Part shown: one piece after another, positions 1,358 to 52,281 of the stretch
Layout: the number at the start of each line of letters is the position of its first letter
How positions within the stretch are numbered: position 1 is the first letter of the stretch
Assembly: GCA_964466575.1 (NCBI GenBank)
Contig: CAYXNP010000003.1
Span: 21,543 to 85,542 of the forward strand
DNA: 64,000 bases
Source: Candidatus Woesearchaeota archaeon
Lineage (GTDB): Archaea; Nanobdellota; Nanobdellia; Pacearchaeales; GW2011-AR1
Direction of reading: 5' to 3'
Translations under genes and position numbers: made by a program
Notes under the pieces: model-generated
The model's database searches: none
What the model was told of the DNA's origin: nothing
The model's input: the letters and a program-made list of their open reading frames with translations, nothing else

Positions 1358-3340
1358 GTGACGATGAATAATAAAGGGGTACAAAAATATGCATTGGTTT
1401 TCGTTGTGTTATTATTAATTATATTTTCTATGTATTTTGTTCTTGGAGATCATACTGTTACTATAACCAATGGGGCAACTAATTTGACAGTGAAAGAAGA
1501 TTTACAACAAATTTTTAATTTCACTATAAATAGTGGAGATAGAAATAATATAACTCAAATTAATATTACTCTTCCAGCAAATTGTACTTTTACTGCTGGT
1601 TCAAATAATACTAATCTTACAACTAATGATACTTCAAGTGTAACAACAATTGGCAATATTTTTACAAATACAAGTGGAAGTGGAGTTTTGAATAGTACAT
1701 TGAGTTGGTCTAATTTTACAGGAGGTGTTATGAATGGAAGTCATATTGCCAAGTTTTGGTTTAATGCAACTTGTACACATCCAGGTAATTACCCTATTAC
1801 TATAACAACTCTTAATGCAACTGGAGTCAATAGAACTAACTTTAATCTTCAAGTTAATGATACTACTTTTCCTGTTTTGAATTATGGTAATGGAACTACT
1901 GCAAATGCATCTAATCAATTTAATAATATTAATGCCTCTCAACCTTCTATTGATGTAAATATAAGTATAAACGAGCTTTTTGTAAATAAAATAACTTTTG
2001 TTTTGTGGAATAGTTCTGGCTTGTTAAATATAACTGTTTTTTCTTTATCAAATAATTATACAAATACAACTATTAATTGGAGTATTCCTTTAGGAATAGG
2101 TTACAATGAGGGATTAACATATTATTATAATGTTACAGTAAATGATACATTTGGAAATGTTGGAAATTTAAGTCTTACTTCAACTAATGTTACAATTAGA
2201 GATAATATTGGACCTCATGTAACATTTGTAAATCCAGTAGGAACTCCGTATAGAAATCATACAGGAACTATTATATTAAATGCAACTATTACTGACAGAT
2301 TCAATAATGTCCAGTTGGTATTATTTAACATTACAAATGCTACAAGTAGAACTGTTTCACTTCTTACAGCAAGTAATAGAAGTGCAACAAATTGGAATGT
2401 TACGCTTCCTTCTGGAAATGGAAGTTTTCCTGATGGAGTTTATAATATTACTGTAATAGTAAATGATACTATAAGTAATGTAAATAATACAGGTGTAGGC
2501 AGGCTTTTTGGACCTTATAGTGTTATTATAGATAATAGCGGACCTTCAGTAACTTTGGCCTCATTGAGTGCAACTACAAGTTCCTTAGGTGTAACTATTA
2601 CAGCAACAGAAACTGTAAGTAGTATTAATGGGGCATGTACTGTAGATAGATCTGGAGCTACTATTACAGGTTCAAGTACAACTACATCTACAACTCAAAA
2701 TATAACTGAAAGTGGATTAGATTGTGGTCATTCTTATGCTTATATTGCAACTTGTACAAATTATGCAGGTAAAGGCGGTTCATCAGCAGCTACTTCATTT
2801 TCTACTTCAGATTGTGGAACATCTGGAGGAAGTAGCGGAGGAGGCGGGGGTGGAGGAAGTGCTACTGTTTGGAGTAGTACATATATTCCTAAAACAGAAG
2901 AATTGCAAAGTGGATATACTCAAAAGTTAGGTGCTAAGGCTAGAATTAAATTAAGCATAAATGATCAAGAGCATTATGTTGGTGTTAAGAGTTTAACTGC
3001 AACTTCTGCTACACTTGAAGTGGCAAGTACACCTGTAACAATGAGTTTGAATGTTGGGGAAGATACTAAAGTTGATGTAACAAATGATGGATATTATGAT
3101 TTATATGCTAAACTACTTTCTATAAAAGATGGTAAAGCAGAAGTAACTGTAAAAACAATTTATGAAAAAGTTCCAGAAGCTCCAGCAGCAGAAGATACTG
3201 GTGAAACTATTCAAGAAGGGCCAATTAGTGATATTGTTGATAAAGGAAAAGCTAATTTAACTTGGTTGTGGGTATTGATAATAGTTGTTGTTGTGGTTGC
3301 GATTGCTTGGATAATTTATGCTAATAAAAAGAGAAGGTAG
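1358..3340 (+). CDS. cell-surface glycoprotein-like protein (N-terminal hydrophobic signal/anchor, C-terminal TM anchor)
   Basis: N-terminal hydrophobic stretch, dozens of N-x-S/T sequons, a GGSSGGGGGGGS linker, and a C-terminal TM helix followed by KKRR. Confidence 0.7.
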   Translation: MTMNNKGVQKYALVFVVLLLIIFSMYFVLGDHTVTITNGATNLTVKEDLQQIFNFTINSGDRNNITQINITLPANCTFTAGSNNTNLTTNDTSSVTTIGNIFTNTSGSGVLNSTLSWSNFTGGVMNGSHIAKFWFNATCTHPGNYPITITTLNATGVNRTNFNLQVNDTTFPVLNYGNGTTANASNQFNNINASQPSIDVNISINELFVNKITFVLWNSSGLLNITVFSLSNNYTNTTINWSIPLGIGYNEGLTYYYNVTVNDTFGNVGNLSLTSTNVTIRDNIGPHVTFVNPVGTPYRNHTGTIILNATITDRFNNVQLVLFNITNATSRTVSLLTASNRSATNWNVTLPSGNGSFPDGVYNITVIVNDTISNVNNTGVGRLFGPYSVIIDNSGPSVTLASLSATTSSLGVTITATETVSSINGACTVDRSGATITGSSTTTSTTQNITESGLDCGHSYAYIATCTNYAGKGGSSAATSFSTSDCGTSGGSSGGGGGGGSATVWSSTYIPKTEELQSGYTQKLGAKARIKLSINDQEHYVGVKSLTATSATLEVASTPVTMSLNVGEDTKVDVTNDGYYDLYAKLLSIKDGKAEVTVKTIYEKVPEAPAAEDTGETIQEGPISDIVDKGKANLTWLWVLIIVVVVVAIAWIIYANKKRR

Positions 3341-3373
3341 TTTTATCTAAATTTTTATATAGTTATTTTTATT

Positions 3374-4765
3374 TTGTTAATTATGGAAATTGATTTAAAT
3401 GAAGTTATGATTGGTGATTTACATTTGCATTCGAAATATTCCAGAGCAACGTCGATTTATTTGAGTTTTGAAAATTTAGTTAAGTGGGCAAAGATTAAGG
3501 GAATTAATTTATTAGGTACTGGAGATTTTACTCATCCTATTTGGTTTGAAGAGATAAAGAAGTTGGAAAATAATGGCAAAGGGATTTATTTCTTTGATGG
3601 TTTTCCTTTTGTTATTACAGGCGAGATTTCGTTTATTTATACGCAGGAAACATACAACAAATCGCGTTTAGATTCAGATTCCCACCACCACTCCCCAACC
3701 AACTCGCGACTTCACTCCACCACCATCGCGCGAGAAACCCCAAACGTGAAATCGCTCGCCCACCCGAGTGATAGGGAATTTACTGAATCTAAACGCTCGT
3801 TAGAAAGAAAAGGCAGGCGTGTTCATTTGAATGTTTTAGTGCCGAATGTTGAAGTTGCAGAGAAGATTAATTCTTATTTGGATACTAAAGGCAGAAGAGA
3901 TTATGACGGCAGGCCGATTTTTAAGATTTCCTGTGAAGAATTCGTTAGAGAGATGAAGAATATTGACGATAAAATTGAAATTATTCCTGCGCATATTTGG
4001 ACGCCCTGGTTTAGTATGTTTGGGAGCAAGTCAGGTTTTGATTCATTTAAGGAATGTTTTGGAGAAATGAGTGAGAAGGTTTATGCGATTGAAACTGGTA
4101 TGAGCAGTGATCCTGAAATGAACTGGCGTATTGGAGAACTGCATAATAAATCAATTGTTAGTTTTTCAGATAGCCATAGTTTTTGGCCGTTTCGTTTAGG
4201 ACGGGAGGCGACTATTTTTAAGAAGTTTGATTCTTATGATGAACTTGTTAGACAAATTAGAAAAAATGATTTTATTGGTACAATAGAAACAGATCCGGCT
4301 TATGGCAAGTATCATTATGATGGCCATAGGAATTGTAGTTTTTCATGTTCTTTTGAGAAAACTAAAAAATTAAATGGGCTTTGTCCAAAATGCGGAAAAC
4401 CATTGGTGATTGGCGTTGATTATCGTGTTGAGGAATTGGCAACTAATAAAATTGGTTTTAGGCCTCAATGTGCAAAACCTTTTTTTAAATTACTTCCTTT
4501 GCATGAAATTATTGTTTTAGCTAGTGGAGGAAGATTAGAAAGTAATTCAACATGGAATATTTATAATGATTTGATTTCAAAATTTGAAAATGAATTTAAT
4601 ATTTTGTTGAAAGTTTCTAAACCAGAATTTTTTAATAAAAATGTCGACGATAAACTTGTTGAATTGATTTTAAAAAATCGTGAAGGAAAGATTTATGTTA
4701 AGCCAGGTTATGATGGAGAGTATGGTGTTGCTGAACTTGGAGAAAAACAGGCGACGCTGGTTTGA
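3374..4765 (+). CDS. endonuclease Q-like PHP-domain nuclease carrying an in-frame repeat insertion
   Basis: GDLHLHSKYSRA, GTGDFTHP, RRVHLNVLVP, PAHIWTPWF, SFSDSHS..RLGRE, DPAYGKYHYDG, CPKCGKPL and GYDGEYG are collinear with archaeal EndoQ. ATG at 3383 is an alternative start. Confidence 0.8.
   Translation: MLIMEIDLNEVMIGDLHLHSKYSRATSIYLSFENLVKWAKIKGINLLGTGDFTHPIWFEEIKKLENNGKGIYFFDGFPFVITGEISFIYTQETYNKSRLDSDSHHHSPTNSRLHSTTIARETPNVKSLAHPSDREFTESKRSLERKGRRVHLNVLVPNVEVAEKINSYLDTKGRRDYDGRPIFKISCEEFVREMKNIDDKIEIIPAHIWTPWFSMFGSKSGFDSFKECFGEMSEKVYAIETGMSSDPEMNWRIGELHNKSIVSFSDSHSFWPFRLGREATIFKKFDSYDELVRQIRKNDFIGTIETDPAYGKYHYDGHRNCSFSCSFEKTKKLNGLCPKCGKPLVIGVDYRVEELATNKIGFRPQCAKPFFKLLPLHEIIVLASGGRLESNSTWNIYNDLISKFENEFNILLKVSKPEFFNKNVDDKLVELILKNREGKIYVKPGYDGEYGVAELGEKQATLV
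3662..3799. mobile_element. MITE-like insertion (family A core 3703-3758) lying in-frame inside the EndoQ-like gene
   Basis: Perfect 14-bp terminal inverted repeats: GCGTTTAGATTCAG (3664-3677) and CTGAATCTAAACGC (3783-3796). The C-tract-rich core is shared with other copies. Length is about 46 codons. Confidence 0.75.
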
Positions 4766-4770
4766 AGAGA

Positions 4771-4974
4771 ATTAGCTCGCTTCGCGAGATTATATGGCTA
4801 CGTATCCGCCTTGCGGCAGGATTTTTCGCTGAGAGGAAAATTAATGCAGAAAGATTTGAATATATTGTGGCTGATTTTATGGACAGGGTAATGAGATAAT
4901 TTATTTGCTTTTTGGAGCTGCTCGCGCCCACGCTTTGTTATTAATATTTAAGATTGTCAAAACGTAAACGCTCG
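4771..4974. repeat. composite repeat: family F module (about 4775-4850) plus family B copy (4921-4974)
   Basis: The F part aligns with 9843-9956. The B part, CTCGCGCCCACGCTTTGTTATTAATA..TTGTCAAAACGTAAACGCTCG, recurs at 12710, 47572 and 62320 (reverse complement). Confidence 0.7.
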
Positions 4975-5084
4975 TCTCTTATTTTGATAAATTTGTAATG
5001 AGCGTCAGAAGTTTTCTTTCCGCATTTTGGGCAATCTGTTTTTAAAGTGTAAGAATTACAATAAGAGCATTTTTTTAATTTCAT
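4941..5084 (-). CDS. nop10: H/ACA RNP protein Nop10 (47 aa, below the ORF-track cutoff)
   Basis: MKLKKCSYCNSYTLKTDCPKCGKKTSDAH.. matches the Nop10 zinc ribbon. Its ATG overlaps the stop of the upstream NUDIX gene (ATGA). The last ~11 codons lie inside repeat family B. Confidence 0.7.
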   Translation of the reverse strand: MKLKKCSYCNSYTLKTDCPKCGKKTSDAHYKFIKIRDERLRFDNLKY

Positions 5085-8360: not shown

Positions 8361-8477
8361 AGCCCCATAGTTTAGTGGTCAAGAATACGGCCCTTTGAAA
8401 GTAAGATGAGGATATTTTTAATTTCTCATTAGGAAAGAAGAAAGGCTGTGACCCCGGTTCGAATCCGGGTGGGGCTA
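8361..8477 (+). tRNA. tRNA-Gln (anticodon TTG) with a 44-nt intron (8399-8442) at the canonical 37/38 position
   Basis: Acceptor AGCCCCA/TGGGGCT, T-arm CCCGG-TTCGAAT-CCGGG. The anticodon stem CGGCC/GGCTG is split by the intron. Confidence 0.8.
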
Positions 8478-18066: not shown

Positions 18067-18420
18067 TGTATAGGTTCATGACTATGTCCTCTTTATGTGT
18101 AAATTTTCTTGCTTCGCAAAGATTAATGGCTTCTACTCGCGCCTTGACTTTGCTATTGATAATTCAAATTGTCAAAGTCAAAACAACTCGGTCAGACTTC
18201 GTCACTGCTCTCGCGACCCCACTCAAACAAAGTTTTGAGGCGCCACTCGTGAAATCGCTCGTCTCCGCTAAGAAATTGTTAATCTATAATTCGGGATATA
18301 TTGTTATCATTTTTCTCGACGGAAAAATCTGGTGAAGCCGATTTTGAAGTCACAATAAATTTTCGAACGAAGTGGGAACTAATTTTTGGTTTAGCCCATG
18401 ACATATGTCATGAACCTACA
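18067..18420. mobile_element. composite MITE-like element with imperfect ~20-bp TIRs; contains family B-like (18136-18190) and family A (18210-18261) modules
   Basis: Left end is TGTATAGGTTCATGACTATGTCC; the reverse complement of the right end is TGTAGGTTCATGACATATGTCA. A related copy lies in inverted orientation at 61981-62456. Confidence 0.7.
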
Positions 18421-22960: not shown

Positions 22961-23040
22961 GTCGGGGGCGAGTGATTTCACGAGTGTCGTCTCAAAACTT
23001 TGTTTGAGTGGGGTCGCGAGGTTAAATCCCTCTGCAGGCT
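22961..23040 (+). pseudogene. duplicated 3' fragment of tRNA-Thr, interrupted in the T-loop by a 52-bp family A element (22969-23020)
   Basis: GTCGGGGG + insert + GTTAAATCCCTCTGCAGGCT repeats the 3' end of the intact gene, which lies 74 bp upstream. Confidence 0.8.
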
Positions 23041-25024: not shown

Positions 25025-26901
25025 TTTCTGAGAATATTAAAAAAGGACAAGTTACAATTTTTATCATTGTTGCGATAATTCTTGTTTTTGCAGTTGTGAT
25101 TTTCTTTTTTTATAGAGAAAGCATTTTCAAAGATAAAGTTCCTGCGACAATAAGTCCTGTTTATAGCAGTTTTTTGGATTGTGTTGAAGAGGATACTTTG
25201 CTTGGAGTAGATATTCTTGGAACACAGGGAGGCTATATTTATGTTAATGAGTTAGAGTTTAGTCCTGGCAGTGCTTATATGCCTTTTTCTTCGCAGTTAG
25301 ATTTTTACGGCAACGCAGTTCCTTATTGGTATTATGTTTCTGGAAATAATATTCAGAAAGAAGAAATTCCTGCAAAATCAGATATGGAAAGAGAGCTGGA
25401 AAGATTTATTGAAGAGCAAATTGTTTTGTGTAATTTAAATTTGTATAAAGAGAACGGATACAAAATTGAGAATGGCGAGCCAAAAGTAGATGTGAAAATT
25501 AATAGCAAGAATATTGAAATTAATTTAGATATGGATTTGAATATTAGGAAGGGAGATGATAAGTATTCTGTTGCTTCGCATAAGAAAACTGTGAAGACAA
25601 ATTTTGGAAAGTTGTATGATATTGCGAGGGATGTTTATGATTATGAACAGGACACTTTGTTTTTGGAGAATTATGGAGTTGATACATTAAGGAATTATGC
25701 GCCTGTTGACGGTGTTGAGTTTTCATGCAAGCCAGAGACGTGGATTGCGTTGAATGTTTCTGAAACTTTGAAAGACGCGATTGAGGCGAACACACAGGCA
25801 TTGCGGGTTAAAGGCAAGTATTATGATTTGTCTAAAGATGGAAATAAATATTTTGTTGTTGACGTTGGCGATGATTTGTCTAAGGATTACAGAGTTAATT
25901 TTATGAATTCAAGATATTGGCCTTATGCGTTTGATGTTTCGCCGACTCAAGGAGATATTTTAATTGCGAATCCTGTTGGGAATCAAGAAGGTTTGGGAAT
26001 TTTGGGTTTTTGTTATGTGCCTTATCATTTTGTTTATGATTTGAAATATCCTGTTTTAGTTCAAGTAATGGATGAATCTGCCGACGAAGTTTTTCAATTC
26101 CCTGTTGCAGTTGTGATTCAAGGCAATAAACCAAGAGAACCTTTAGAAGGAAATGCAGCTGATTTAGGAGATGTTGAGCTTTGCCAGTATGCTAATCAAG
26201 AAGTTGAAGTCAGAACTTATAATACTAATTTAAATTCTGTTGACGCTGATATTTCTTTTAATTGTTTAGGAAGCAGGTGTAATATTGGTGAGACTTTTCA
26301 AGGAAGGCTGACAGAGTATTTTCCTCAATGTGTTAATGGATTTGTTATTGCAAAAGCTGAAGGTTATGAGACTGCGCAGTATTTGGTTTCAACTAATGTC
26401 GAGGATAGTGTGGATATTATTTTAGATAAATTGTATGAAGTTGATATTGATTTGTTAATTGACGGAAGGCCGACAAGCAAGGAAGCGATTATTTCATTTG
26501 CTGGAGATAATAAAGCCAAGACAATTATTTATCCTGAACAGAGAAGTGTTGAGTTGAGTCAGGGGTTGTATGATATTAAAGTTCAGGTTTTTGATGATTC
26601 TATTTTGACAATTGGAGCTACAACAACAAAACAGTGTTATGAAGTTCCTCGCGGTGCTGTTGGAGGATTTTTTGGAATTACAAAAGAAGAATGTGTTGAT
26701 ATTGAATATCCTGAACAAGTTGTTTCACAAGTTTTGATTGGCGGAGGAGAAGTTGAATATTTCATTTTAGAATCTGAATTAATTAACGCAAGAACAATTG
26801 AAATTGATACAGAGAGTTTGATTAAGCCAAATAGTATTGAGGCAATAAACACAAATTATAATTTATTTGAAAATAGAATTTTAGGGGTGAAGTTTAAATG
26901 A
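25021..26901 (+). CDS. secreted protein with an archaeal class III (type IV pilin-like) signal peptide
   Basis: N-terminus MISENIKKGQVTIFIIVAIILVFAVVIFFF has the KKGQ + hydrophobic-helix pattern. The rest has no recognised domain. ATGA overlap with the downstream giant gene. Confidence 0.6.
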   Translation: MISENIKKGQVTIFIIVAIILVFAVVIFFFYRESIFKDKVPATISPVYSSFLDCVEEDTLLGVDILGTQGGYIYVNELEFSPGSAYMPFSSQLDFYGNAVPYWYYVSGNNIQKEEIPAKSDMERELERFIEEQIVLCNLNLYKENGYKIENGEPKVDVKINSKNIEINLDMDLNIRKGDDKYSVASHKKTVKTNFGKLYDIARDVYDYEQDTLFLENYGVDTLRNYAPVDGVEFSCKPETWIALNVSETLKDAIEANTQALRVKGKYYDLSKDGNKYFVVDVGDDLSKDYRVNFMNSRYWPYAFDVSPTQGDILIANPVGNQEGLGILGFCYVPYHFVYDLKYPVLVQVMDESADEVFQFPVAVVIQGNKPREPLEGNAADLGDVELCQYANQEVEVRTYNTNLNSVDADISFNCLGSRCNIGETFQGRLTEYFPQCVNGFVIAKAEGYETAQYLVSTNVEDSVDIILDKLYEVDIDLLIDGRPTSKEAIISFAGDNKAKTIIYPEQRSVELSQGLYDIKVQVFDDSILTIGATTTKQCYEVPRGAVGGFFGITKEECVDIEYPEQVVSQVLIGGGEVEYFILESELINARTIEIDTESLIKPNSIEAINTNYNLFENRILGVKFK

Positions 26902-29900
26902 AATTTTCATTTGCGAAACTTACTAAGGTGCCCGAAACTCGCGACCCCACTCCTTCCCAAATATTTGAGACCCGCCCAAACGTGAAATCGCTTGCCCACC
27001 TATTTGAATCCCTAATACTAAGAAGTCCTGTTCATGATATTTCTAAGTGCCCACCCACCCCTAAATCTTCGTCCCACCCTAAATGGGTGGGTCCTGTTAG
27101 TGGAATTGCTAAGCCTATTAGTTTAACATTCATCTTGTTTTTCTTAATCGGAATTTTTATTTTGAATATAGCTTTAGTAAATTCGCAATATATTCCCCCA
27201 AGTTATCAAGCAGGTTATGGTTATGGAGGTGCGAATGATTATTGGAATTCTGCGAGTTATTCTCAAGCTCAAACTTATAGACCAGGATTAGGAACTAATT
27301 ATCCTTATTATAATTCAAATCAAAATTTGTATAGAGATCCTTATTATGGAGGAGATTATAGTTATAATAATCCTAATAGTAATTATCAATCTAGCAGTAT
27401 TTATTCTAATAGAAATCAATATTATAATTCATATTCAAACATGTATCCGACTTCATCGTATGGGAGAAATCCTTATTTATCGTCGGGATATGGGGGATAT
27501 TATCAGCCTTTTCCTTCGCAAACTTATTTACAAGGACAGGGAATTGATTTGTATAGGAATTTTGACGACGAGCAATGCGGTTTAGGACAGGATTTTTTAA
27601 TTCAGCAGGCGCCGTTTGGATGTTCGCCGAGCGTTGTTAGAAGTGATTTGTTAGAAGAACAAAATGTGCCTGTGTTTTGCCAGCTTGCTGCGACAAAATT
27701 AAATCCTTTGATTGATGTTGATGCGATTTATTCAATGGAATTTCGCCGCGATAAGAATTTTCCTGAAGATGTTGTTGGTGTTGGGTTTCATCCTGCAAGA
27801 GCTGCAGTAAGGCAAACATCTTATCTTGGCAGTTCATCTTCTTATGGAGCTAGTTTTTCCGGCAGAACAGGCAGTTTGCTTAATTCAGCTGTTATGAATA
27901 ATGTTGGCTATGCAGTTGTAGTTTTGAAACAGCAGCCAAATGAAAAAGATATGCCTGATTCGATTTCTGGAAATCTTACTGCTGTTTTAAGGTATGATGT
28001 TAAGAATGCATTTGGTGTTGGGAATGTTGAATTTGCATTGCCGCAAGTTGATGATTTATCATGGAATGAAGATTATAGGAAATATAGTTTTTGGAAAGGC
28101 AGGGGATTTTTGCGGGCCGATTTAGTTGAGCCTGACAGAGCAGTTATTTCAATAATGTCTGACCAGAATTTAAAAATTGATACTGTGAGTTTGACTGTTG
28201 GACAAACTGCTCGAGAAGTTAGAATGCCTGGATTTTATTGTTTTGCAAAAGCAGAAGTTAAGTTAGATAGAATTGGATTTCCTGATACGACTGCCCGATT
28301 AAGGATTGATAATGATTATGTTGATTTAGTCGCTGACCAAAGATTTTTAGATGATAGATGCAGGGTTCAGTTTGTTGAAAAGAATGGCTTGTCTGAATTT
28401 GCGCAGATAAGATGCAGTGAAGACGACGGTGCGACAAGATATTATGAATTTCAGAAAAGTCCGCGAGTTGTTTTAAAAATTAATGATGTGGAGGGAACTT
28501 ACAAAGTTGGAGAGCCATTGTCTTTGTTTGGAACTTCGTATTATGTTGTCAGGGCAATTGAGCAAAACGATGAAAATGGAAAGATTTCAATTGTTTTAGA
28601 TTCTTCTTTGACGCCTTATAATTATAGAAGCTATCCAAGTTTGACGTCGAGTTCGAGTTCGTATTTGTATAATAATAATTTGAGAATTGATTTAGGAGAA
28701 ACATTGGATTTGTCTGATGATAATAAAATTCAATTTTTAAGTTTGTCAGAAGGTGTAAATGAAGACTTTTCTCAAGAAAATGATGTGGATGTTGGTAATT
28801 ATAATTCTGTGTTTAAAGAGAATTATGATAATGCTATTGCTGATTATTCCAGAGTTGCAAGTGATTTTGCGAATGAGCTTATGGAACCAGGTTTTGGCGA
28901 AGCAGGGAAAACTTATGGAGAAGAAGCATTGGAGAGAGCTGCTTACTTGGCAGAGGCGACAGGACAGATATTAACAAGCAAAGAGTTTATTGATAAAATG
29001 AAAGACGAGTATGGTGAATTAGAAAATGAAAATGAGCTTCGGCTTTTGGCAGACGAGTCTTTGTTTTATTCAGAGGAAGAAACAAGCGGTGTTATGATTG
29101 ACGGAAGGTTGCATATTATTACTTTTTTAGGAGCAAGCAAACCGAGGTTAAGTGATTTTAGCGCAAAGTTTTTTGTAAAAAATACTCAAACAAATAAAGT
29201 TGATGATTTTGTTTTAGGAAAAGATGGCAGGCGAGAATTTGATAGAGGAAATAATCGGGATCAAATTATTCTTAGATATTTAGATGAATTTTCTGCTGAT
29301 ATAGATTATATCGGAGAAGAATATATTGATGCTAATTTGAGCAGAAGAAATATTTCAAGAAGGTTTACTGTTTTTAGAGACAGGCCGATTACTATTGGTA
29401 ATGGGAAATACACCCTTTCTGTTGAGAATATTAATTTTAAGAATGTTGCTTATGTAAGAATTGAGCCAAAGTTGGAAGATATTAGGACAGAGGCGAATTT
29501 TAGCATTAATATTGGAATTGAAAAACGGGCGATTAAATTGAGTCCTGAACAAACTGAAAATAGGATTAATAAAGCGAATGAGACGCTTGAAAAGTTGAAT
29601 AAGATTTCTGATGGACTTGGAAAAGTTGTGAAAGGAACAAAGGCAGCGTGTCTTGCTACTGGCGGGTTTTTGATTACAAAGAATTTCCTGCAGAATTTGG
29701 GAGGCAAGCAAATCGCAAGACAGCAAATTATGAGAAGCCAGGGAGGCTGGCAAGAGTTTTGCAGACAGGCAATTGCAGATAATGATGGAAATTATGCAAG
29801 CATGGATGATTGTTTTAATAAAAATGCAGATGCAATTGACGCCGACGTTGAAACACTTAATGGATTTATACAAAAGCAAAACGATGAGATAAAAGCTGCA

Positions 29901-32816
29901 AAAGGAACCCAAGGAGCAAGTATTTTTGGAAATGATTATTATGATAATGATGAATATGTAAAAAATTATCTTCCTGGTGTAAAGAGTGATATAGAAGCTT
30001 ATGGAAAAGATATTGTTGATCCAAATAATCCTGATAGGAAAATTACTTCTGAACGGTTGGCAAGCATATTAGAACAGAAATATGAAAAAGAGGGAGGTTA
30101 TAGTATTGAACAAGCAAGAGATGTCCAATTGTATGCGCGGATTTTGAATTCAGAGGAAGTTTCTGCTGATTCAAGATTATATAAAATGACTCAAAAGAAT
30201 TTATATGATACTGCTGCCTTGATGGATGAGACAACTCAAGGATTAATTGATGCTGATACATTGCAAAATGATTTTGCAAGCAAGGGATTTCCTAATATTA
30301 ATATTCATTCTTATGGCAAAAAGAATTCTGTTACTGGAATTTATAGCGGAGGAACTGTTTTGGGAAGTAATATTAAAGGAGTTGAATTAACTGAAGAAGA
30401 AAAGAAAAAGAGTTTTGCATTTGAGCCATTTTATTATGGGAATGAAAAATATGTTGCGCTTTTAGATGGTTCTGGAGGAAATAGATATAATATTAAAAAT
30501 GTTTACAAATTAGGTGATGTTGGTGCTGGGAATGTGATTAATGTTGCCAGCGCTTCCGACGAGGCTACGCTTAAACAACAGTTTAGAGGATTTGAGAAAT
30601 TTGACGTGAATTCTTATAATAATGTTTACAAAAGTCCTGAAGCAAGATTTTATGAAGCTGAGCCTTACAAAGGATTTCCAGCTGTTGTTCCATTTGATAC
30701 GACAAAAGGATGGTATGCTGCAACTAAGCAGACAATTGCTGCGTTTGGAAGTTTAGGTGCGTTTGATGATTCAGGAAGGATTTCTAGTTTCTGGCTTTGT
30801 AATGTTGGCAGTAATGGGCTGGAAGAATTTAATACTGGTTTTGGCGACGATAATTGTCAGCAGATTAATATTGGAACTAACCAGCCTTATGGAGAAATTT
30901 TAGGATTACCGGTTGGTGAGGCGTCAAGACTTGTTGGAAGAGCAATTAGGGCATTGGAATCTGCTTCGAGTCAAAGGCAGGGCAATGTAAATATAAAATA
31001 TATTTCAATTGAAGGACAGAGAATAAAAGTCGGCAATCCTGCTGCGAATATTCCGCAGATGCAATGCCAGGATTTTATGTCGCCTAAGGATTGTCATTTG
31101 TTGTTTAATGTCTGCGACCCTGTGATTTGTCCGTCGTCAAGGTGCAACCTTGGAGGAAATTATAATGTGCCGAATGTTATTCAATCTGGAATAATTGGAA
31201 GCATCGCATTGTGTTTGCCAAATTATAAGGAGGGAATTGCTGTTCCTGTTTGTTTGAGTGGTGTGAATGCTGGTGTGCAAAGTCTTCAAAGTATTTATCA
31301 AAATTATCATGATTGTCTGAGAGAAAGTTTAGATACTGGAAGACAGACTGGAATTTGCGACGAGATTCATAGTATTTATTTGTGCGATTTCTTCTGGCAG
31401 CAGGCGACGCCGATTGCGAAGATTGGAATTCCAAAATTAATTGGAAGTTTGCTTGGAGAAGGAACCAGAGGAGGAGGAGAATATCTTGGAGTTCAGAGCG
31501 CTTGGGAAGGAGCTTCTAATTCAATGGATTATTTTACAAAGAGTTATGCAGAAAATTCTTACAATGCATTTAAAGTTAGAAGCACTGATGAAGTTGGAAC
31601 TCAAGTTTGCAAGAATTTTGCTTCATTAAGATTTCCTGATGTGATTGATAATTTGATTGAGCCTGATTCGCCGCCGCAATATAACGCGTGGTTTGATGAA
31701 ATTCCTTTGACAACAGCGACGGTTCCTGCAACTTCGCAGTATAAAGTGTTTTATCATATTTTTGGCGGAAAAGATTTTGGAAGTTATTATACTGTTTATT
31801 TGAAATCTGCTTCCGGAACTTCATTTTTTGAAACTCCTGGAAGATTAGTTGTTGCTTCAGGATATATTGACAGAGGTGGTTATGCGTCAGATACTTTGGA
31901 TTTTACTCAGTCTGCGGGATATAGTGAGTTGTGTGTTAGTGTTAATGCGCAGGAAGAGTGCGGGTTCCAGAAAGTTTCGACTTCGTTTGCTTTGGATTAT
32001 TTGAGCAACAAATATCTTAATGAGCAGGCGTCAGCGACGGGAATTATGTCTGAGAGTGAATGTGTTTCTGGAAGTTCTAGTTTGTACTCGTTGGCTCAGC
32101 CGAATTTACAACAAGGTGTTGATGAAGTTATTAATCCTCAACTTTATAATTATGGAATTGTGAGAGTGTGTTCAACTGATAACCCTGGAAATAGAAATGA
32201 TCCAAAGACCGGGACTGATGCTTCAAGATGGCGTGTTGTTGGAAACTGCGACGGAAGTGTTGGAAAAGTTCAGTGTTGGGTTGATACTCGAAGTGTTAAA
32301 GAAAATATTGATATTAAATATTTAGAAAAAGGCGCATTAGATAGTATTGATGCGAATTATATGGATTTCTTAAACGGAACTGAAGGTTTTATGGATCAAG
32401 GAGAAGTTCAATCTCAAATAGAATCAATAGATAAAGGAACACTTAGTGATAATGAAAAGATAAATACTATTACTGATATTTTGGATAAGGTTGTGTTTAG
32501 TCATCAGAAAGCTTATTTGCTGTTGTTAAGAGGAGATGCTTATAAGAATCTTGCAATTCAAGCATATACTGGTATTAAGAGTAAATTAAGAGAGAAAGAT
32601 TCTGTTGTGCCTGTTGAAAATCCAAGGCCAGAAGATAAACCTAATTCTTTGCCTGTTGTTGAAGTGCCTGTAAGTGAGACAGATAAAAAAGATTCGAGTG
32701 AGCAACAAAAGATTGATGAAGAAAATGCGAGAAAGGCAGAAGAGGCAAGGATAAGGGCAGATGAAAAAGAAAGATTGTTGAGAGAAATTAATCAAGGTGT
32801 TGGCGCAGTTGCTTGA
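26898..32816 (+). CDS. giant (1972 aa) membrane-anchored extracellular protein
   Basis: Uninterrupted ORF with a TM helix at aa 74-96, a Tyr/Asn/Ser/Gly low-complexity region at aa 97-215, a Cys-rich region around aa 1380-1560, and a K/E-rich coiled-coil tail. An alternative GTG start at 27087 would exclude the repeat-derived N-terminus. Confidence 0.75.
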   Translation: MKFSFAKLTKVPETRDPTPSQIFETRPNVKSLAHLFESLILRSPVHDISKCPPTPKSSSHPKWVGPVSGIAKPISLTFILFFLIGIFILNIALVNSQYIPPSYQAGYGYGGANDYWNSASYSQAQTYRPGLGTNYPYYNSNQNLYRDPYYGGDYSYNNPNSNYQSSSIYSNRNQYYNSYSNMYPTSSYGRNPYLSSGYGGYYQPFPSQTYLQGQGIDLYRNFDDEQCGLGQDFLIQQAPFGCSPSVVRSDLLEEQNVPVFCQLAATKLNPLIDVDAIYSMEFRRDKNFPEDVVGVGFHPARAAVRQTSYLGSSSSYGASFSGRTGSLLNSAVMNNVGYAVVVLKQQPNEKDMPDSISGNLTAVLRYDVKNAFGVGNVEFALPQVDDLSWNEDYRKYSFWKGRGFLRADLVEPDRAVISIMSDQNLKIDTVSLTVGQTAREVRMPGFYCFAKAEVKLDRIGFPDTTARLRIDNDYVDLVADQRFLDDRCRVQFVEKNGLSEFAQIRCSEDDGATRYYEFQKSPRVVLKINDVEGTYKVGEPLSLFGTSYYVVRAIEQNDENGKISIVLDSSLTPYNYRSYPSLTSSSSSYLYNNNLRIDLGETLDLSDDNKIQFLSLSEGVNEDFSQENDVDVGNYNSVFKENYDNAIADYSRVASDFANELMEPGFGEAGKTYGEEALERAAYLAEATGQILTSKEFIDKMKDEYGELENENELRLLADESLFYSEEETSGVMIDGRLHIITFLGASKPRLSDFSAKFFVKNTQTNKVDDFVLGKDGRREFDRGNNRDQIILRYLDEFSADIDYIGEEYIDANLSRRNISRRFTVFRDRPITIGNGKYTLSVENINFKNVAYVRIEPKLEDIRTEANFSINIGIEKRAIKLSPEQTENRINKANETLEKLNKISDGLGKVVKGTKAACLATGGFLITKNFLQNLGGKQIARQQIMRSQGGWQEFCRQAIADNDGNYASMDDCFNKNADAIDADVETLNGFIQKQNDEIKAAKGTQGASIFGNDYYDNDEYVKNYLPGVKSDIEAYGKDIVDPNNPDRKITSERLASILEQKYEKEGGYSIEQARDVQLYARILNSEEVSADSRLYKMTQKNLYDTAALMDETTQGLIDADTLQNDFASKGFPNINIHSYGKKNSVTGIYSGGTVLGSNIKGVELTEEEKKKSFAFEPFYYGNEKYVALLDGSGGNRYNIKNVYKLGDVGAGNVINVASASDEATLKQQFRGFEKFDVNSYNNVYKSPEARFYEAEPYKGFPAVVPFDTTKGWYAATKQTIAAFGSLGAFDDSGRISSFWLCNVGSNGLEEFNTGFGDDNCQQINIGTNQPYGEILGLPVGEASRLVGRAIRALESASSQRQGNVNIKYISIEGQRIKVGNPAANIPQMQCQDFMSPKDCHLLFNVCDPVICPSSRCNLGGNYNVPNVIQSGIIGSIALCLPNYKEGIAVPVCLSGVNAGVQSLQSIYQNYHDCLRESLDTGRQTGICDEIHSIYLCDFFWQQATPIAKIGIPKLIGSLLGEGTRGGGEYLGVQSAWEGASNSMDYFTKSYAENSYNAFKVRSTDEVGTQVCKNFASLRFPDVIDNLIEPDSPPQYNAWFDEIPLTTATVPATSQYKVFYHIFGGKDFGSYYTVYLKSASGTSFFETPGRLVVASGYIDRGGYASDTLDFTQSAGYSELCVSVNAQEECGFQKVSTSFALDYLSNKYLNEQASATGIMSESECVSGSSSLYSLAQPNLQQGVDEVINPQLYNYGIVRVCSTDNPGNRNDPKTGTDASRWRVVGNCDGSVGKVQCWVDTRSVKENIDIKYLEKGALDSIDANYMDFLNGTEGFMDQGEVQSQIESIDKGTLSDNEKINTITDILDKVVFSHQKAYLLLLRGDAYKNLAIQAYTGIKSKLREKDSVVPVENPRPEDKPNSLPVVEVPVSETDKKDSSEQQKIDEENARKAEEARIRADEKERLLREINQGVGAVA
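26925..27091 (+). repeat. family A-long element (26925-27017) plus C-tract core (27042-27091) at the 5' end of the giant ORF
   Basis: The 93-nt block differs at 6 positions (manual alignment) from 48542-48634 inside GlyRS, and is read in the same frame. Confidence 0.8.
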
Positions 32817-32837
32817 TTCTAAATAAAATTAGCGGCC

Positions 32838-33062
32838 CGCTCCAAAGTCGCTCGCGTTATTTATTGCAGCTCGCGACCTCACTCGAACAAAGTTTTGAGG
32901 CAACACTCGTGAAATCGCTCATCAAAACCGACTTTGTCAAGTTCTTCGCTTAAAGAAATTATGAACCCAAAAATTCTGAAATATTTTGTTATCAGGTTTT
33001 CTCGATGAATAATCGTGTCAAAAGGTCGATTATAAGTTAATAATTCTCGCGACTTTGGAGCG
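32838..33062. mobile_element. MITE-like element with 14-bp TIRs CGCTCCAAAGTCGC/GCGACTTTGGAGCG, carrying a nested family A core (32870-32921)
   Basis: TIRs at 32838-32851 and 33049-33062. Internal modules are shared with 54960-55260 and 18190-18290. Confidence 0.7.
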
Positions 33063-33171
33063 AGCAACTTCACGAGAACTAATTTGAAATATTAATAGCG
33101 AGTGGGGTTAGGAGTAGAGTGATTTTTAGGATTCTAAAGATTTTTATATGAATAATTTCTGGTATTTCTAT

Positions 33172-33314
33172 GCGGGAATGCCGGATGTCGCTTATATACT
33201 TAAGCTCGTCCATCACCCCAAATATTGAAGCGGGAATGCCGGAGAACTCGCGACCTCACTCGAACAAAGTTTTGAGGCGAGACTCGTGAAATCGCTCGGG
33301 TCAAACGGGCGAAG
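33172..33314 (+). pseudogene. two partial 5' copies of tRNA-Leu, the second split in the D-loop by a family A element (33247-33298)
   Basis: GCGGGAATGCCGGA occurs at 33172. GCGGGAATGCCGGAG + insert + GGTCAAACGGGCGAAG occurs at 33230-33314. Both are compared with the intact gene at 33337. Confidence 0.8.
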
Positions 33315-33336
33315 AAGTTTTCTCATTCACCGAATG

Positions 33337-33421
33337 CGGGAATGCCGGAGTGGTCAAACGGGCGAGGTTTAGGACCTCGTGTGCTTAGTGCCTACCTAGG
33401 TTCGAATCCTAGTTCCCGCAT
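33337..33421 (+). tRNA. tRNA-Leu (anticodon TAG), long variable arm
   Basis: Acceptor GCGGGAA/TTCCCGC, anticodon arm CGAGG-TTTAGGA-CCTCG, T-arm CTAGG-TTCGAAT-CCTAG. Confidence 0.85.
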
Positions 33422-33479
33422 CATGCAATCAGAGATTGCATTAATTAAATTGGGATGAGAACCGACGGTTCGACGAGCA

Positions 33480-33685
33480 ATTTCGTGTTAAGGGCGTAAG
33501 TGGAAAGAGGTGGCGAGTGATTTCGCGAAAGTAAAAATTCAAATATTTATGGGTGTGGCAGTGAGCGGGGTCGCGAGTAGAGATTGCGAGCATCCTAGTT
33601 CCCGCATTACTATTGAACGAAGTGAAATAGTATGTGAATTATAATTCTTAATAGAGGAGTGGGTTAGGGTTTCCTAGTTCTCGCA
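33480..33685. repeat. repeat block with reverse-oriented family A copies and two partial 3' copies of tRNA-Leu (33594-33606, 33673-33685)
   Basis: CGAGTGATTTCGCG..GGGGTCGCGAG at 33514-33577. ATCCTAGTTCCCGCAT and TCCTAGTTCTCGCAT repeat the tRNA 3' end. Confidence 0.7.
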
Positions 33686-39682: not shown

Positions 39683-39823
39683 AGCGGAGACCGGGACTCG
39701 AACCCGGGAAAATCTGCTAACTGCAATCAGCCTTGAGCCTATTTCTAGGGAGAGACTGTGAAGGAGAACCGTTAGGTTCTTCTCATCTGCAGGCAGACGC
39801 AGTAGCCGCTGTGCCATCTCCGC
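39683..39823 (-). tRNA. tRNA-Cys (anticodon GCA) with a 68-nt intron (39719-39786) at 37/38
   Basis: Acceptor GCGGAGA/TCTCCGC, T-arm CCGGG-TTCGAGT-CCCGG. The anticodon stem TCTGC/GCAGA is separated by the intron. Confidence 0.75.
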
Positions 39824-39841: not shown

Positions 39842-39959
39842 TGGCCCGGACAGGATTTGAACCTGCGACCCCCTGCTCTCTCCAGCTTTCTCTCCGAGGT
39901 CTCTTTTCTAAAGAGAGCTCTAGAAGGCAGGTGCTCTATCCAGGCTGAGCTACCGGACC
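39842..39959 (-). tRNA. tRNA-Arg (anticodon TCT) with a 43-nt intron (39878-39920) at 37/38
   Basis: Acceptor GGTCCGG/CCGGGCC, D-arm GCTC..GAGC, T-arm GCAGG-TTCAAAT-CCTGT. The anticodon stem CCTGC/GCAGG is split by the intron. Confidence 0.8.
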
Positions 39960-42181: not shown

Positions 42182-42257
42182 GAGTCTCTTTTGTTTATTT
42201 TTTATAATTAATTTTATATACTCTTATTTTATTAGTTGAATATTGAAAGGAGGTAAA

Positions 42258-43523
42258 ATGAAAGAATATTTTATTTTATTTTATTTTATTTTTTTGGTAT
42301 TTATTTTAAGTATTTCTTTTATATTCGCTGAAGAAGGAATTGTAGCAAATGATAATTTTGAATCTGGAAACTGGAATGGTGGAGGGGGAGTTATTGGTTG
42401 GAACAGTGGATGGTATCACGCAGGCGATTCTGCAATAAGAAGTGACGGGAATTCTTATGAAGGAAATTATCATTTGCGATTAAGAAAAAATAATGGATAT
42501 GTTGATAGAAGCGCTGATTTATCAAGTATTCAAAATGCAACTTTGTCTTTTTATGCTAAGGTGAATAGCTTTGAAGGAAGCGACTTTGCAGTTTTCTTAG
42601 TGAGTAACAACGGAGTCAATTGGAATACTTTAAAAACATTTACTTTAAGTGATTCAGATAACTCTTACCATTTATATTCTTATGATTTAACCCAATATGG
42701 ATTATCAAGTAATTTCTGGATTGCCGTTGATTCTGAAATGTCTAATACAGGAGATTATCTTTTTATTGATGATATTAGAATAATTTCCGGTAATATTCAA
42801 GAACCACCTACACTAAATATAACTCAATTAACTTGGCATATTCAATATAATCCAACTCCAACTAATCCCTCTGCTGATGTTGATGTCTGGAATTTAGATT
42901 TATTTGATAATAGCAATACAACAATTCAAAATCTAAAAAATCAAGGAGTTTTTGTTATGTGTTATTTTTCTGCTGGTAGCTGGGAAGATTGGCGGGAAGA
43001 TGCTTCATTATTTCCTGAATCATGCAAAGGAAATAGCAATGGCTGGCCAGGAGAAAAATGGATAGACACTAATTGTCCTGAAGTCAGAGAAATTATGAAA
43101 TCAAGAATTGATTTAGGAATAAGCAAAGGGTGTGATGGATTTGACCCAGATAATATGGATGCATATGGAAATAACGGAGGAGGATTTAATTTAACACAAC
43201 AAGATGCAATTAATTACTATCTTTTTTTATCAAATTACACACATAGTCAAGGAAAAAATATTGGATTGAAAAATGCTTTATTAATTATTCCTAATGTTTT
43301 AAATAAAATGGACTGGGCAGTAAATGAACAATGTTTTAGATATAACGAGTGTAATCTTCTTCAGCCAGTTATCAATCAAGGAAAACCTGTTTTTAATGTT
43401 GAATATGGAGGATTATCCAAAGCAAATAAAATTTGTTCTAAAGTAAATGAACTTGGATTTTCTTCACTAATCAAAAAGACATCTTTGGATAGCTTTGAAA
43501 TCGCATGTTCAAGTTACATTTAA
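42258..43523 (+). CDS. secreted GH114-like glycoside hydrolase (endo-alpha-1,4-polygalactosaminidase family) with an N-terminal jelly-roll/CBM-like domain
   Basis: Signal peptide; VWNLDLFD, VMCYFSAGSWEDWR, GCDGFDPDNMDAY, IGLKNA and VFNVEY are collinear with GH114. The start is moved to ATG 42258. Confidence 0.7.
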   Translation: MKEYFILFYFIFLVFILSISFIFAEEGIVANDNFESGNWNGGGGVIGWNSGWYHAGDSAIRSDGNSYEGNYHLRLRKNNGYVDRSADLSSIQNATLSFYAKVNSFEGSDFAVFLVSNNGVNWNTLKTFTLSDSDNSYHLYSYDLTQYGLSSNFWIAVDSEMSNTGDYLFIDDIRIISGNIQEPPTLNITQLTWHIQYNPTPTNPSADVDVWNLDLFDNSNTTIQNLKNQGVFVMCYFSAGSWEDWREDASLFPESCKGNSNGWPGEKWIDTNCPEVREIMKSRIDLGISKGCDGFDPDNMDAYGNNGGGFNLTQQDAINYYLFLSNYTHSQGKNIGLKNALLIIPNVLNKMDWAVNEQCFRYNECNLLQPVINQGKPVFNVEYGGLSKANKICSKVNELGFSSLIKKTSLDSFEIACSSYI

Positions 43524-47510: not shown

Positions 47511-47776
47511 GAGCGTGTCTAAAAAATAGTTTTTTCTAATGACTTATTCCGACGCAATTTCATAGTCCAAATTCGCGCCCACGTTTTGTTATTAATAAGA
47601 ATTTACATCAAAACGTAAACGCTCACCTCCCACTCCCCTACTCGCAACTTCGCCCACCATTTCCACACTTACATCCTTATCACGAAATTGCTCACCACCC
47701 GCCCGAGTAGTTAGTGAATTAATGAAATTGCGCGTCGGTAAATAATCTTATATTTAATGAATTATTAGACATGCTC
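47511..47776. mobile_element. family C MITE (TIR GAGCGTGTCTAA../..TTAGACATGCTC) with nested family B (47572-47624) and A-like (47641-47695) modules
   Basis: The outer TIR and inner TIR (CCGACGCAATTTC / GAAATTGCGCGTCGG) were read directly. A shorter relative lies at 50215-50368. Confidence 0.75.
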
Positions 47777-48298: not shown

Positions 48299-48370
48299 AA
48301 AAAGTTCTTTAATTGTGACTATATAAAGTTTGTTGCAGAATATTTAAATAATCTTGTAGTGAGTAATTAT

Positions 48371-52189: not shown

Positions 52190-52209
52190 CTCTTACTTTT
52201 CTTAATTTT

Positions 52210-52281
52210 GGCTGCATAGCTCAGCGTTAGAGTATCTGTCTCATGAGCAGAGGGTCCCGGGTTAAACTCCCGGTGTAGCCA
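52210..52281 (+). tRNA. tRNA with CAT anticodon (elongator Met or Ile2)
   Basis: Acceptor GGCTGCA/TGTAGCC, anticodon arm TCTGT-CTCATGA-GCAGA, T-arm CCGGG-TTAAACT-CCCGG. Confidence 0.8.

Follow-up and report, generated by a model that had tools for sequence, protein, structure and literature searches.

An in-frame, repeat-bearing insert at a recurrently occupied site of the endonuclease Q gene in a DPANN archaeon

The endonuclease Q (EndoQ) gene within a 64,000-nucleotide DNA stretch of a Candidatus Woesearchaeota archaeon (assembly GCA_964466575.1, contig CAYXNP010000003.1, positions 21,543 to 85,542; hereafter the window) carries a polymorphic 159-nt insert which keeps the reading frame and contains in its central part one copy of a short repeat, designated family A. 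With a probability of roughly two in three the insert is a translated selfish element that resembles the Rickettsia palindromic elements (RPEs), originates from a new DPANN repeat family and occupies an insertion hotspot. In a first-pass annotation of the sequence the same segment was described as a MITE (miniature inverted-repeat transposable element) with 14-bp terminal inverted repeats; this classification is not retained, as the arms are subterminal and private to the locus and the target duplication does not exceed 2 nt.

The insert and its empty-site allele

The open reading frame (ORF) was listed from a TTG codon at position 3374, and an ATG start at 3383 agrees with the database protein P0001. 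In a phmmer search against PDB sequences the ORF product matched PfuEndoQ (5zb8, E=6e-48), and the alignment was broken exactly at the insert into two blocks (query residues 8–82 with Pfu 2–77 and query 145–454 with Pfu 81–384), which leaves 62 query residues opposite 3 Pyrococcus residues. The earlier view of an EndoQ gene interrupted by about 46 codons directly before RRVH is thus upheld for the identity of the enzyme, while the length is corrected to 53 codons by the empty-site allele and the 3' end of the insert lies two codons ahead of GRRVH. The features of the locus are as follows.

3383–4765, plus strand: EndoQ homologue, 460 residues including the insert (PDB 5zb8/7k30, E ~1e-47; homologues carry PF27218 and are named endonuclease Q family)
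3623–3625, plus strand: codon of E81, equivalent by alignment to the PfuEndoQ zinc ligand Glu76
3650–3808, plus strand: inserted DNA, 159 nt or 53 codons, residues 90–142 (TYNKSRLDS...KRSLER), defined by empty-site contig L001 versus the filled window, L002 and L003
3664–3677: left arm of the inverted repeat, GCGTTTAGATTCAG, perfect over 14 bp, subterminal
3678–3683, plus strand: 5' strand of the inner stem, ATTCCC, paired with GGGAAT at 3774–3779; 3-nt bulge TTA at 3780–3782
3703–3758, plus strand: family-A core, CTCGCGACTTCACTCC-N24-AACGTGAAATCGCTCG, 56 nt (covariance model 50.1 bits, E=2e-13); helix P1 3706–3709:3752–3755 (GCGA:TCGC), helix P2 3713–3715:3746–3748 (CAC:GTG)
3774–3779, plus strand: 3' strand of the inner stem, GGGAAT, in the minimum free energy fold
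3783–3796: right arm of the inverted repeat, CTGAATCTAAACGC, which resembles the right extension ...CTGAATCCCTAAAAC of the core copies at 26938 and 48555
3824–3826, plus strand: codon of H148, equivalent by alignment to the PfuEndoQ zinc ligand His84

The empty site is represented by the 407-residue protein P0002 of contig L001, which reads ...ACACAGGAAAAAGGCAGG..., in a longer context ...ATACACAGGAAAAAGGCAGGCGT..., and three independent assemblies (the window, L002 from JGI and L003 from ENA) are each exactly 159 nt longer than L001, with an insert identical in all three. Outside the insert the 460-residue P0001 and P0002 show 100% protein identity, and the window protein is 96% identical to both (97% to P0001 over the protein search). 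Owing to a 2-nt AA microhomology at both junctions the borders are defined to ±1 nt (3649–3807 and 3651–3809 are equally valid), and the segment can alternatively be described as a 157-nt element (3651–3807) with a 2-bp AA duplication. In about 100 of the 120 nearest homologues no more than two or three residues separate ...IYTQ from GRR(I/V)H. The EndoQ insert is a real, polymorphic, in-frame insertion at the DNA level; both the alignment of orthologues and the comparison of related strains, proposed earlier as checks, gave this answer, the former by showing an inserted rather than native segment and the latter by providing an otherwise identical allele without it.

The insert differs from its host in composition, with a GC content of 48–54% and a strong excess of C against 33–35% in the EndoQ gene and 32.5% in the window. 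Only one of its six reading frames is open, and this is the stop-free frame used by EndoQ, as the first reading of the sequence had stated; the encoded peptide includes the stretches SLAHPSDR and LDSDSHHHSPTNSR.

After the insert was stripped from the genes, 40 differences were counted over 1224 sites between the window and L001, 42 between the window and L002, and 12 between L001 and L002. Stripped positions 89–389, which surround the insertion point, show no difference between the two filled alleles but 5 differences private to the empty one, while from position 509 onward L001 equals L002 and both differ from the window. Because the variable sites are mosaic, the filled and empty alleles are separate haplotypes reshuffled via homologous recombination. 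Precise excision as the origin of the empty allele was dropped on account of its 5 linked private single-nucleotide differences and the recombinant mosaic of the alleles.

Removal at the protein level, as by an intein, was also rejected, since the insert has only 53 residues without intein blocks, and the real inteins of distant EndoQ homologues are found at another site, IPAH/C. In these homologues, of about 830–850 residues (P0244, P0249, P0252, P0265, P0271, P0280), an intein-like insertion of about 390–420 residues starts with Cys directly after IPAH; many other distant homologues are fusions of about 1000–1200 residues. The viral contigs searched contained neither EndoQ relatives nor core copies, and therefore no link to a virus or plasmid is indicated.

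The insert has a composite anatomy, in which an outer hairpin (14-bp perfect stem, 3-nt bulge and 6-bp stem) holds one family-A core in its loop. The arms GCGTTTAGATTCAG and CTGAATCTAAACGC are perfectly complementary and 105 nt apart, none of 200 shuffles of the flanks attained 14 bp, and the 14-mer was found nowhere in the 64-kb window beyond 3664–3677 and 3783–3796, so that the perfect repeat reported at first pass is confirmed. The minimum free energy fold of the insert reaches -47.1 kcal/mol (z = -6.8). Because the empty-site allele puts the insert ends 13–15 nt farther out than the beginning of the arms, the repeat is subterminal and not terminal. A scan of JGI metagenomes for the arm pair at a spacing of 90–120 nt returned only the already known L002 contig, i.e., the same EndoQ locus. 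The motif CCCACC on either side of the core (3681–3686 and 3759–3764) suggests that the core was nested into the loop of a hairpin-type element.

Some further inverted repeats were observed in the window. A second perfect 14-bp pair with the same arm length and the same 105-nt spacing as in EndoQ lies at 42345–42358/42464–42477 (GCAAATGATAATTT/AAATTATCATTTGC) in ORF 42243–43523 (plus strand), where the N-terminal region of the encoded, secreted GH114 protein is unannotated, and encloses GC-rich (43–50%) and G-rich DNA. It was considered as a relative of the EndoQ insert and discarded, since neither p value for the similarity (0.11 and 0.24) is significant and a core match is lacking. A 26-nt inverted repeat of 81% complementarity (50242–50267/50317–50342) is situated about 85 nt 3' of the glycyl-tRNA synthetase (GlyRS) stop codon, and a 17-nt one of 94% (54777–54793/54893–54909) adjoins the core copies at 54975 and 55067.

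The family-A repeat

BLAST matches of the insert within the window are confined to its central part. Copies of this part, the family-A core, were defined by a fuzzy motif search followed by a covariance model, and have the bipartite consensus CTCGCGACCCCRCTC(N), 18 to 32 variable nt, (NY)CGYGAAATCGCTCG, with a total core length of 50–62 nt. The census of the window gave 11 strong copies (49–59 bits) and 3 weaker ones, or about 220 per Mb, and these copies confirm the earlier assignment of a family-A core to the insert. Besides the EndoQ copy the following were found.

18210–18261, plus strand: strong intergenic copy
22969–23020, minus strand: strong copy
26938–26994, plus strand: in-frame copy at codons ~14–32 of a 1972-residue ORF (26898–32816)
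32870–32921, plus strand: strong copy
33061–33114, minus strand: strong copy
33247–33298, plus strand: bare 52-nt core inside a duplicated 5' fragment of tRNA-Leu
33514–33577, minus strand: copy in a 170-nt unit 3' of tRNA-Leu (33335–33422), bounded by a 16-bp direct repeat of the tRNA 3' end, ATCCTAGTTCCCGCAT
48555–48611, plus strand: in-frame copy in the hypervariable N-terminal linker of GlyRS (48359–50158)
54975–55026, plus strand: strong copy
61216–61267, plus strand: strong copy
47637–47698: weaker copy
55067–55127: weaker copy
62024–62087: weaker copy

An exact-pattern scan of species-representative genomes detected the core in 16 stretches from metagenome-assembled genomes (MAGs) of Pacearchaeota, Woesearchaeota and Nanoarchaeota. 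The full-text search of open-access papers, which is no proof of novelty, found no description of in-frame repeats or of family A in DPANN archaea, and the best-supported description of family A is an apparently new repeat family, whose nucleotide sequence is conserved in several candidate lineages of DPANN archaea.

The core pairs as GCGA:UCGC (P1) and CRC:GYG (P2) separated by a 3x3 internal loop CCC/AAA, with UC/UC and UC/YC mismatches beside the helices and closing pairs outside. In the alignment of 32 copies 94.4% of the cells are paired, against 16–40% with slid partners. At the R/Y pair 16:57, where R and Y were left free in the scan pattern, AU occurs in 18 copies, GC in 13 and a mismatch in 1; a diverged copy shows a compensatory GC to AU change together with a G·U pair, and the loop-closing pair varies as well (GC 10, AU 7, GU 6). 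RNAalifold independently predicts both P1 and P2. As judged from this covariation, the core as a conserved structured nucleic-acid motif is well supported, though not proven, and most likely it is a site recognized by a protein on single-stranded DNA or RNA. With Rfam 15 only tRNAs matched in the window at the gathering threshold, and nothing was obtained for 3600–3860 at E<=10. The readings of the core as a K-turn, C/D-box or terminator were dropped on inspection, as it has no boxes, no G·A tandem and no T-run, and the consensus motifs of integron attC-like and ORB-like (origin recognition box) sites do not match it.

Other repeat-like DNA was noted next to cores. Directly 3' of the copy at 26938, at 27020–27090 of the 1972-residue ORF, more C-rich DNA includes the hairpin CCCACCC-TAAAT-GGGTGGG, and the CCCACCC motif is also present beside many family-A cores. 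Just 3' of the EndoQ stop codon (4765–4860 and 4917–4978) there is GC-rich DNA (46–49%) with the palindrome CTCGC-TTC-GCGAG, and the core covariance model matches weakly in the same region (17 bits), overlapping a Nop10-like 47-residue ORF (4941–5084, minus strand) at its 3' end.

Indications of mobility were obtained at tRNA genes. All seven tRNA-adjacent copies (six MAG loci and 33514–33577 of the window) share one architecture: the tRNA gene, a spacer of 24–91 nt in which a GAACC-N4-GGTTC hairpin is often seen, the core, invariably oriented antisense to the tRNA, 2–14 nt, and a direct repeat of 11–18 bp (mean 14.9), which is the exact tRNA 3' end with a few trailer bases and encloses 85–170 nt. 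In addition, the filled tRNA-Leu 5' fragment reads GCCGGAG-AA[52-nt core]-GGTCAAAC, while the real gene (33336) is empty and reads GCCGGAG-T-GGTCAAAC; by this comparison of filled and empty paralogues the bare core, up to its closing C:G pair, can itself be the inserted unit, without duplication. Both kinds of copies show family A to be mobile DNA. The whole neighbourhood of tRNA-Leu(tag) 33335–33422 (32835–33600) holds four cores (32870 and 33247 on the plus strand, 33061 and 33514 on the minus strand), the first 14–15 nt of the gene in three copies (33172, 33230 and 33336) and the 16-bp 3'-end repeat downstream, and looks like a repeatedly used integration site.

In the window, copies inside genes are located in EndoQ, in the linker between the N-terminal domain and the catalytic core of GlyRS (a copy shared by P0121, which is 100% identical, and lacking in P0122, at 87% identity) and near the N-terminus of the 1972-residue ORF, while in other MAGs small signal-peptide-like proteins carry the core between their basic N-terminus and their hydrophobic segment. 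Examples of the latter are L010 (47–652) and L017 (genes 1830–2153 and 2935–3381, minus strand), where a 50-nt core (17 codons) stands between a basic N-terminus (MINKK/MKNKR/MNKT) and the hydrophobic segment, a position which might be removable by signal-peptide processing; the same core variant in neighbouring L017 genes suggests duplication after insertion. The left core motif is read as TRDP in GlyRS, the 1972-residue ORF, L010 and L017 and as NSR(L/P) in EndoQ copies, and the right one as NVKSLAH in some genes and PRNRS in others. As the reading frame of the core changes from gene to gene, its conservation is that of a nucleic acid and not of a peptide.

ORFs occupy at least 70% of the window and yet hold just 3 of its 14 core copies, fewer than expected (p=2e-4). 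The nine in-gene copies all lie on the sense strand, the copies in EndoQ, GlyRS, the 1972-residue ORF and the signal-peptide-like N-termini are all in frame and stop-free, and among the 32 core copies checked none was situated between long ORF fragments in differing frames or was stop-interrupted. Such a pattern would be expected if genic copies meet translation and selection filters them.

The about 36 window ORFs of at least 130 residues are ordinary archaeal housekeeping genes (TFB, S8e, S3Ae, SRP54, FtsY, GINS, tRNase Z, GlyRS, leucyl-tRNA synthetase and EndA), with no HUH/Y1 transposase and no autonomous insertion sequence with the same ends among them. A 229-residue ORF with a LAGLIDADG-like domain (52282–52971, minus strand) meets tRNA-Met (52209–52282, plus strand) at its last base and may be a relic of a free-standing homing endonuclease. 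In the 1030-residue leucyl-tRNA synthetase (57961–61053, plus strand) a serine-hydrolase/α/β-hydrolase domain (residues 282–440) is apparently inserted between the catalytic and editing domains.

The insertion hotspot

In PfuEndoQ Glu76 and His84 are zinc ligands, mutation of which abolishes activity (PMC5961232), and the insert lies between their equivalents E81 and H148. AlphaFold2, run with an 18-sequence alignment, placed the flanking strands (residues 74–87 and 144–153) at a predicted local distance difference test (pLDDT) score of about 96 and residues 88–142 as coil at 25–32. In this model the insert is a disordered loop that projects from the tip of the β-hairpin joining both ligands at its base, in agreement with the tolerated loop supposed at first pass, and the enzyme with the insert is probably still functional.

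The same position is used repeatedly. Of 121 close homologues, 12 are longer by 4 to 53 residues precisely at the junction of the E and K codons, while elsewhere inside the protein no site has more than one sequence with extra residues, and these number at most 6. Each insert-bearing orthologue has insert-free nearest neighbours (e.g., P0034 versus P0090 at 94%), and the insert peptide is largely unconserved among the insert-bearing orthologues. Among 50%-identity EndoQ representatives the distance between the ligands is 15 in 128 of 133 and otherwise does not exceed 27, whereas in the close DPANN clade it is expanded to 19–67 in 12 of 119; the large inserts are specific to the DPANN clade hosting family A. 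The first-pass annotation had taken a homologous segment in repeat-less orthologues as a mark of native sequence. About 10% of the close orthologues do carry related or unrelated inserts at the junction, and therefore the site is a hotspot, and the segment is not made native by them.

At the DNA level at least three kinds of inserts share this codon junction. Hairpin-type inserts (ACA...AGA) are those of the window and of L026, the latter having CTTTGGTTCAG/CTGAACCAAAG as an inverted repeat of 11 bp, whose inner ends TTCAG/CTGAA are those of the window, an inner stem ATTTTC/GAAAAT in place of ATTCCC/GGGAAT, and no core. Core-type inserts without a hairpin are present in L004 and L005, with TCTGT...CCRAACTCSCGAC in common, and short-hairpin inserts in L023 and L025. 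Between the window and L026 hairpins the alignment of the left halves surpasses 99.9% of shuffles (p ~0.001).

The following course of events would explain these observations. The 159-nt segment would be selfish repeat DNA inserted at the DNA level into the EndoQ gene of a Pacearchaeota-like DPANN archaeon, as a composite of an outer long hairpin and one family-A core copy carried in its loop. Family A would be moved in trans by some enzyme and sits at tRNA 3' ends in units of 85–170 nt with 11–18-bp target duplications, while elsewhere the bare core enters without duplication. Most genic insertions would be purged by selection, and the survivors would be those in permissive segments that are sense-strand, stop-free and a multiple of three in length. 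The EndoQ insert would be translated as a 53-residue hydrophilic, disordered loop in a probably functional enzyme, and filled and empty alleles would coexist in the population, shuffled by homologous recombination.

Several observations weigh against this explanation. Searches of the window and of JGI metagenomes gave no second copy of the full 159-nt unit, which may have arrived either in one step or by nesting, and a Pfam scan of the about 36 larger window ORFs gave no transposase, integrase or Cas1. By RNAalifold the consensus fold of the core has a low thermodynamic stability (-5.2 kcal/mol), the single strong covarying pair could partly be explained by two subfamilies, and the right halves of the window and L026 hairpins are not significantly similar (p=0.25). 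The in-frame state of the EndoQ hotspot inserts was ascertained via full-length protein calls, and only about 5–7 in-gene copies were detected without recourse to gene calls. That the insert is translated and not removed is suggested indirectly by the frame and stop constraint, and selection alone is not obviously enough for EndoQ inserts at only one loop.

The last point bears on the possibility that the hairpin- and core-type inserts are site-specific homing mini-elements, actively directed to the EndoQ E/K junction by a sequence- or structure-guided recombinase, which would be compatible with their translation. This is well short of an even bet and a secondary candidate. The concentration of extra residues in 12 of 121 homologues at the exact junction, the presence there of at least three unrelated insert types, the insert-free nearest neighbours of all insert-bearing orthologues, the restriction of large expansions to the DPANN clade with family A, and the fixed orientation at defined sites of tRNA ends all agree with homing. 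However, no recombinase was found, the EndoQ junction and the tRNA targets have no sequence similarity, hairpin tips are classically indel-tolerant, the inserts were ascertained via intact proteins, and recombination can spread a single insertion among relatives. In a wider and likewise tentative form, which has perhaps a slightly better chance, family A may be an undescribed class of mini mobile element that is spread throughout DPANN and defined by its structure, an irregular hairpin with invariant internal loops, and that a dedicated recombinase inserts site-specifically into tRNA 3' ends (with ~15-bp duplications) and a few conserved gene positions such as the tip of the EndoQ β-hairpin. 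If so, the recurrent EndoQ inserts would reflect homing and not mere tolerance, and ultra-small genomes would routinely carry translated selfish DNA in essential genes.

Alternative origins and related elements

The classical MITE, i.e., a cut-and-paste unit of 133–138 nt whose 14-bp terminal repeats are bound by a transposase encoded elsewhere and which landed in frame by chance, appears improbable in comparison with an RPE-like translated insert. In its favour are the perfect and non-random 14-bp repeat, the small size, foreign composition and lack of an own ORF, the presence/absence polymorphism, the fact that the repeat can be prolonged imperfectly as far as the termini (CATAC.AAC / GTTAGAAAG), where AA may be a 2-bp duplication, and the high MITE density reported in some DPANN genomes (PMC11602168). 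The arm pair is nevertheless found at no other locus of the window or JGI metagenomes and begins 13–15 nt inside the empirical ends, and no transposase was found among the about 36 larger window ORFs. Target duplications are inconsistent, with at most 2 nt at EndoQ, none for the bare core in the tRNA-Leu fragment and a variable 11–18 bp at tRNA ends. Among 31 distinct core copies only that of EndoQ and that of L019 (12 bp, of different sequence) have a significant flanking inverted repeat. The repetitive part, the core, is internal and moves without the arms.

Small prokaryotic repeats of the MITE kind also include ERIC and BOX. MITEs with in-frame genic copies are known, e.g., QMITE1 of Coxiella (PMC5896051), archaeal ones have been described in Sulfolobus and Haloquadratum (PMC10969869), and MITE censuses that include DPANN genomes exist (PMC11602168). 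Like MITEs, family A is small, structured and non-autonomous, with only the host frame open, its core is multicopy (~14 per 64 kb and 16 MAG loci), and it shows insertion polymorphism and is sometimes fused in frame to host ORFs. Unlike them, its genic copies have neither shared terminal inverted repeats nor a target-site duplication of fixed length, the full 159-nt unit is not multicopy in the window or JGI metagenomes, and the core is conserved across many genera, while MITE families are usually lineage-specific.

A bulge-helix-bulge (BHB) intron of the messenger RNA, which would be excised by the tRNA-splicing endonuclease so that the protein never contains the segment, was considered in view of several intron-like traits. 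As in the cbf5 mRNA introns of Crenarchaeota, which serve as precedent, and in the transposed tRNA introns of Thermoproteales, a short structured insert repeatedly occupies one conserved gene position, and the host has intron-bearing tRNAs and an EndA gene. The tRNA genes with introns of about 45–71 nt at or near the canonical anticodon-loop position, missed by ARAGORN and found with Rfam, and the endonuclease gene are located as follows.

8361–8477, plus strand: intron-bearing tRNA gene
39683–39823, minus strand: intron-bearing tRNA gene
39842–39959, minus strand: intron-bearing tRNA gene
56857–57411, minus strand: EndA, 184 residues, PF01974 and PF02778, one N-terminal and one catalytic domain (single-unit type)

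The hairpin also offers a 14-bp helix, a 3-nt bulge and a 4-bp helix, with a BHB-like conformer CAG-ATTC[CCA]CC / GG-GAAT[TTA]CTG. The BHB scanner, validated on the 37/38 intron of tRNA 39842–39959, is permissive (84 candidates versus ~40 in shuffles), and it gave no candidate at the borders of the 159-nt insert (3649–3651/3807–3809). Excision at the sole candidate with a strong outer helix (3684–3781, 98 nt) would produce ...TCC C-AC TGA, a frameshift with an immediate stop. The L026 hairpin has a 2x3 internal loop instead, and L004 and L005 have no closing stem. In PMC5829648 relaxed motifs are described as cut only by the (αβ)2 and ε2 enzyme types, while the EndA of the window is a single 184-residue unit. 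The evident frame and stop constraint of in-gene copies would be needless for an excised element. Because the BHB geometry fails at the borders and in L026, L004 and L005, and because of the frame constraint, excision at the RNA level is very unlikely.

Hardly any weight is left for a native or exapted functional loop, i.e., a segment now selected as part of the enzyme, for instance as a flexible arm beside the active site with a role in DNA binding or in recruiting partners, since, for all its position between two catalytic ligands, its recurrence there and its identity in three assemblies whose genes differ by 3.3% elsewhere (0 differences per 159 nt not being significant at ~1% local divergence), the segment is absent from an otherwise identical allele and about 90% of close orthologues, is of low complexity and predicted to be disordered, and is constrained as a nucleotide repeat which elsewhere is read in other frames.

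Other known systems share single traits with family A. Like the REP/BIME-RAYT and the IS200/IS605-derived PATE elements it is a short imperfect hairpin without terminal inverted repeats, with bare-core insertion without duplication and a density of about 220 per Mb; unlike these types the core has no conserved 5' tetranucleotide (GTAG/CGTC-like tag, TTAC-like target), its 5' flanks being variable (AA, TA, TG, GG, CT...), and in contrast to the extragenic REPs it also resides within genes. Target duplications of 14–15 bp are characteristic of tRNA-gene-targeting integrative elements and casposons, which the tRNA-adjacent units resemble in their 11–18-bp repeats (mean 14.9) of the tRNA 3' end and fixed orientation. 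These units, however, have only 85–170 nt, no integrase or casposase nearby and no clear terminal inverted repeats abutting the duplications, and the EndoQ copy has no ~15-bp duplication.

The RPEs, reportedly described by Ogata et al. in Science in 2000 (290:347) and in Genome Research in 2002 (12:808), are the closest analogue, and the parallel drawn at first pass is apt. They are characterized in PMC10969869 as palindromic repeats of about 100–150 bp found in frame in unrelated housekeeping genes and in non-coding DNA. The DPANN element likewise is an in-frame palindromic repeat in several unrelated genes (EndoQ, GlyRS, the 1972-residue ORF and signal-peptide-like proteins), at surface or permissive positions predicted to be compatible with the fold (the EndoQ loop and the GlyRS linker), in a host with a small reduced genome and without a recognizable transposase. 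The differences are that family A has an archaeal host and an unrelated sequence, that its core is read in various frames while RPE families encode a conserved peptide in one frame, that its repetitive unit is an irregular hairpin of 50–62 nt, in EndoQ nested in a private long hairpin, and that it also integrates at tRNA 3' ends with ~15-bp duplications. One EndoQ position is, moreover, a recurrent hotspot for inserts, which to our knowledge is not a described property of RPEs. By analogy, the EndoQ insert appears to work functionally like an RPE without being a member of the RPE family.

In-frame selfish DNA within housekeeping genes is, as far as we know, textbook knowledge only for Rickettsia. 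That DPANN archaea, whether free-living or episymbiotic, show it as well, and with an unrelated repeat, suggests that it may arise generally where mobile repeats meet very compact genomes in which intergenic space is scarce. In DPANN MAGs, protein predictions and alignments are inflated and distorted by such inserts. P0001 and P0002, identical elsewhere, represent a ready test of a 53-residue disordered loop between two catalytic metal ligands, and the family-A core, with its distribution in several DPANN lineages, covariation and tRNA-end signatures, may serve as a starting point for a new archaeal pair of recombinase and element.

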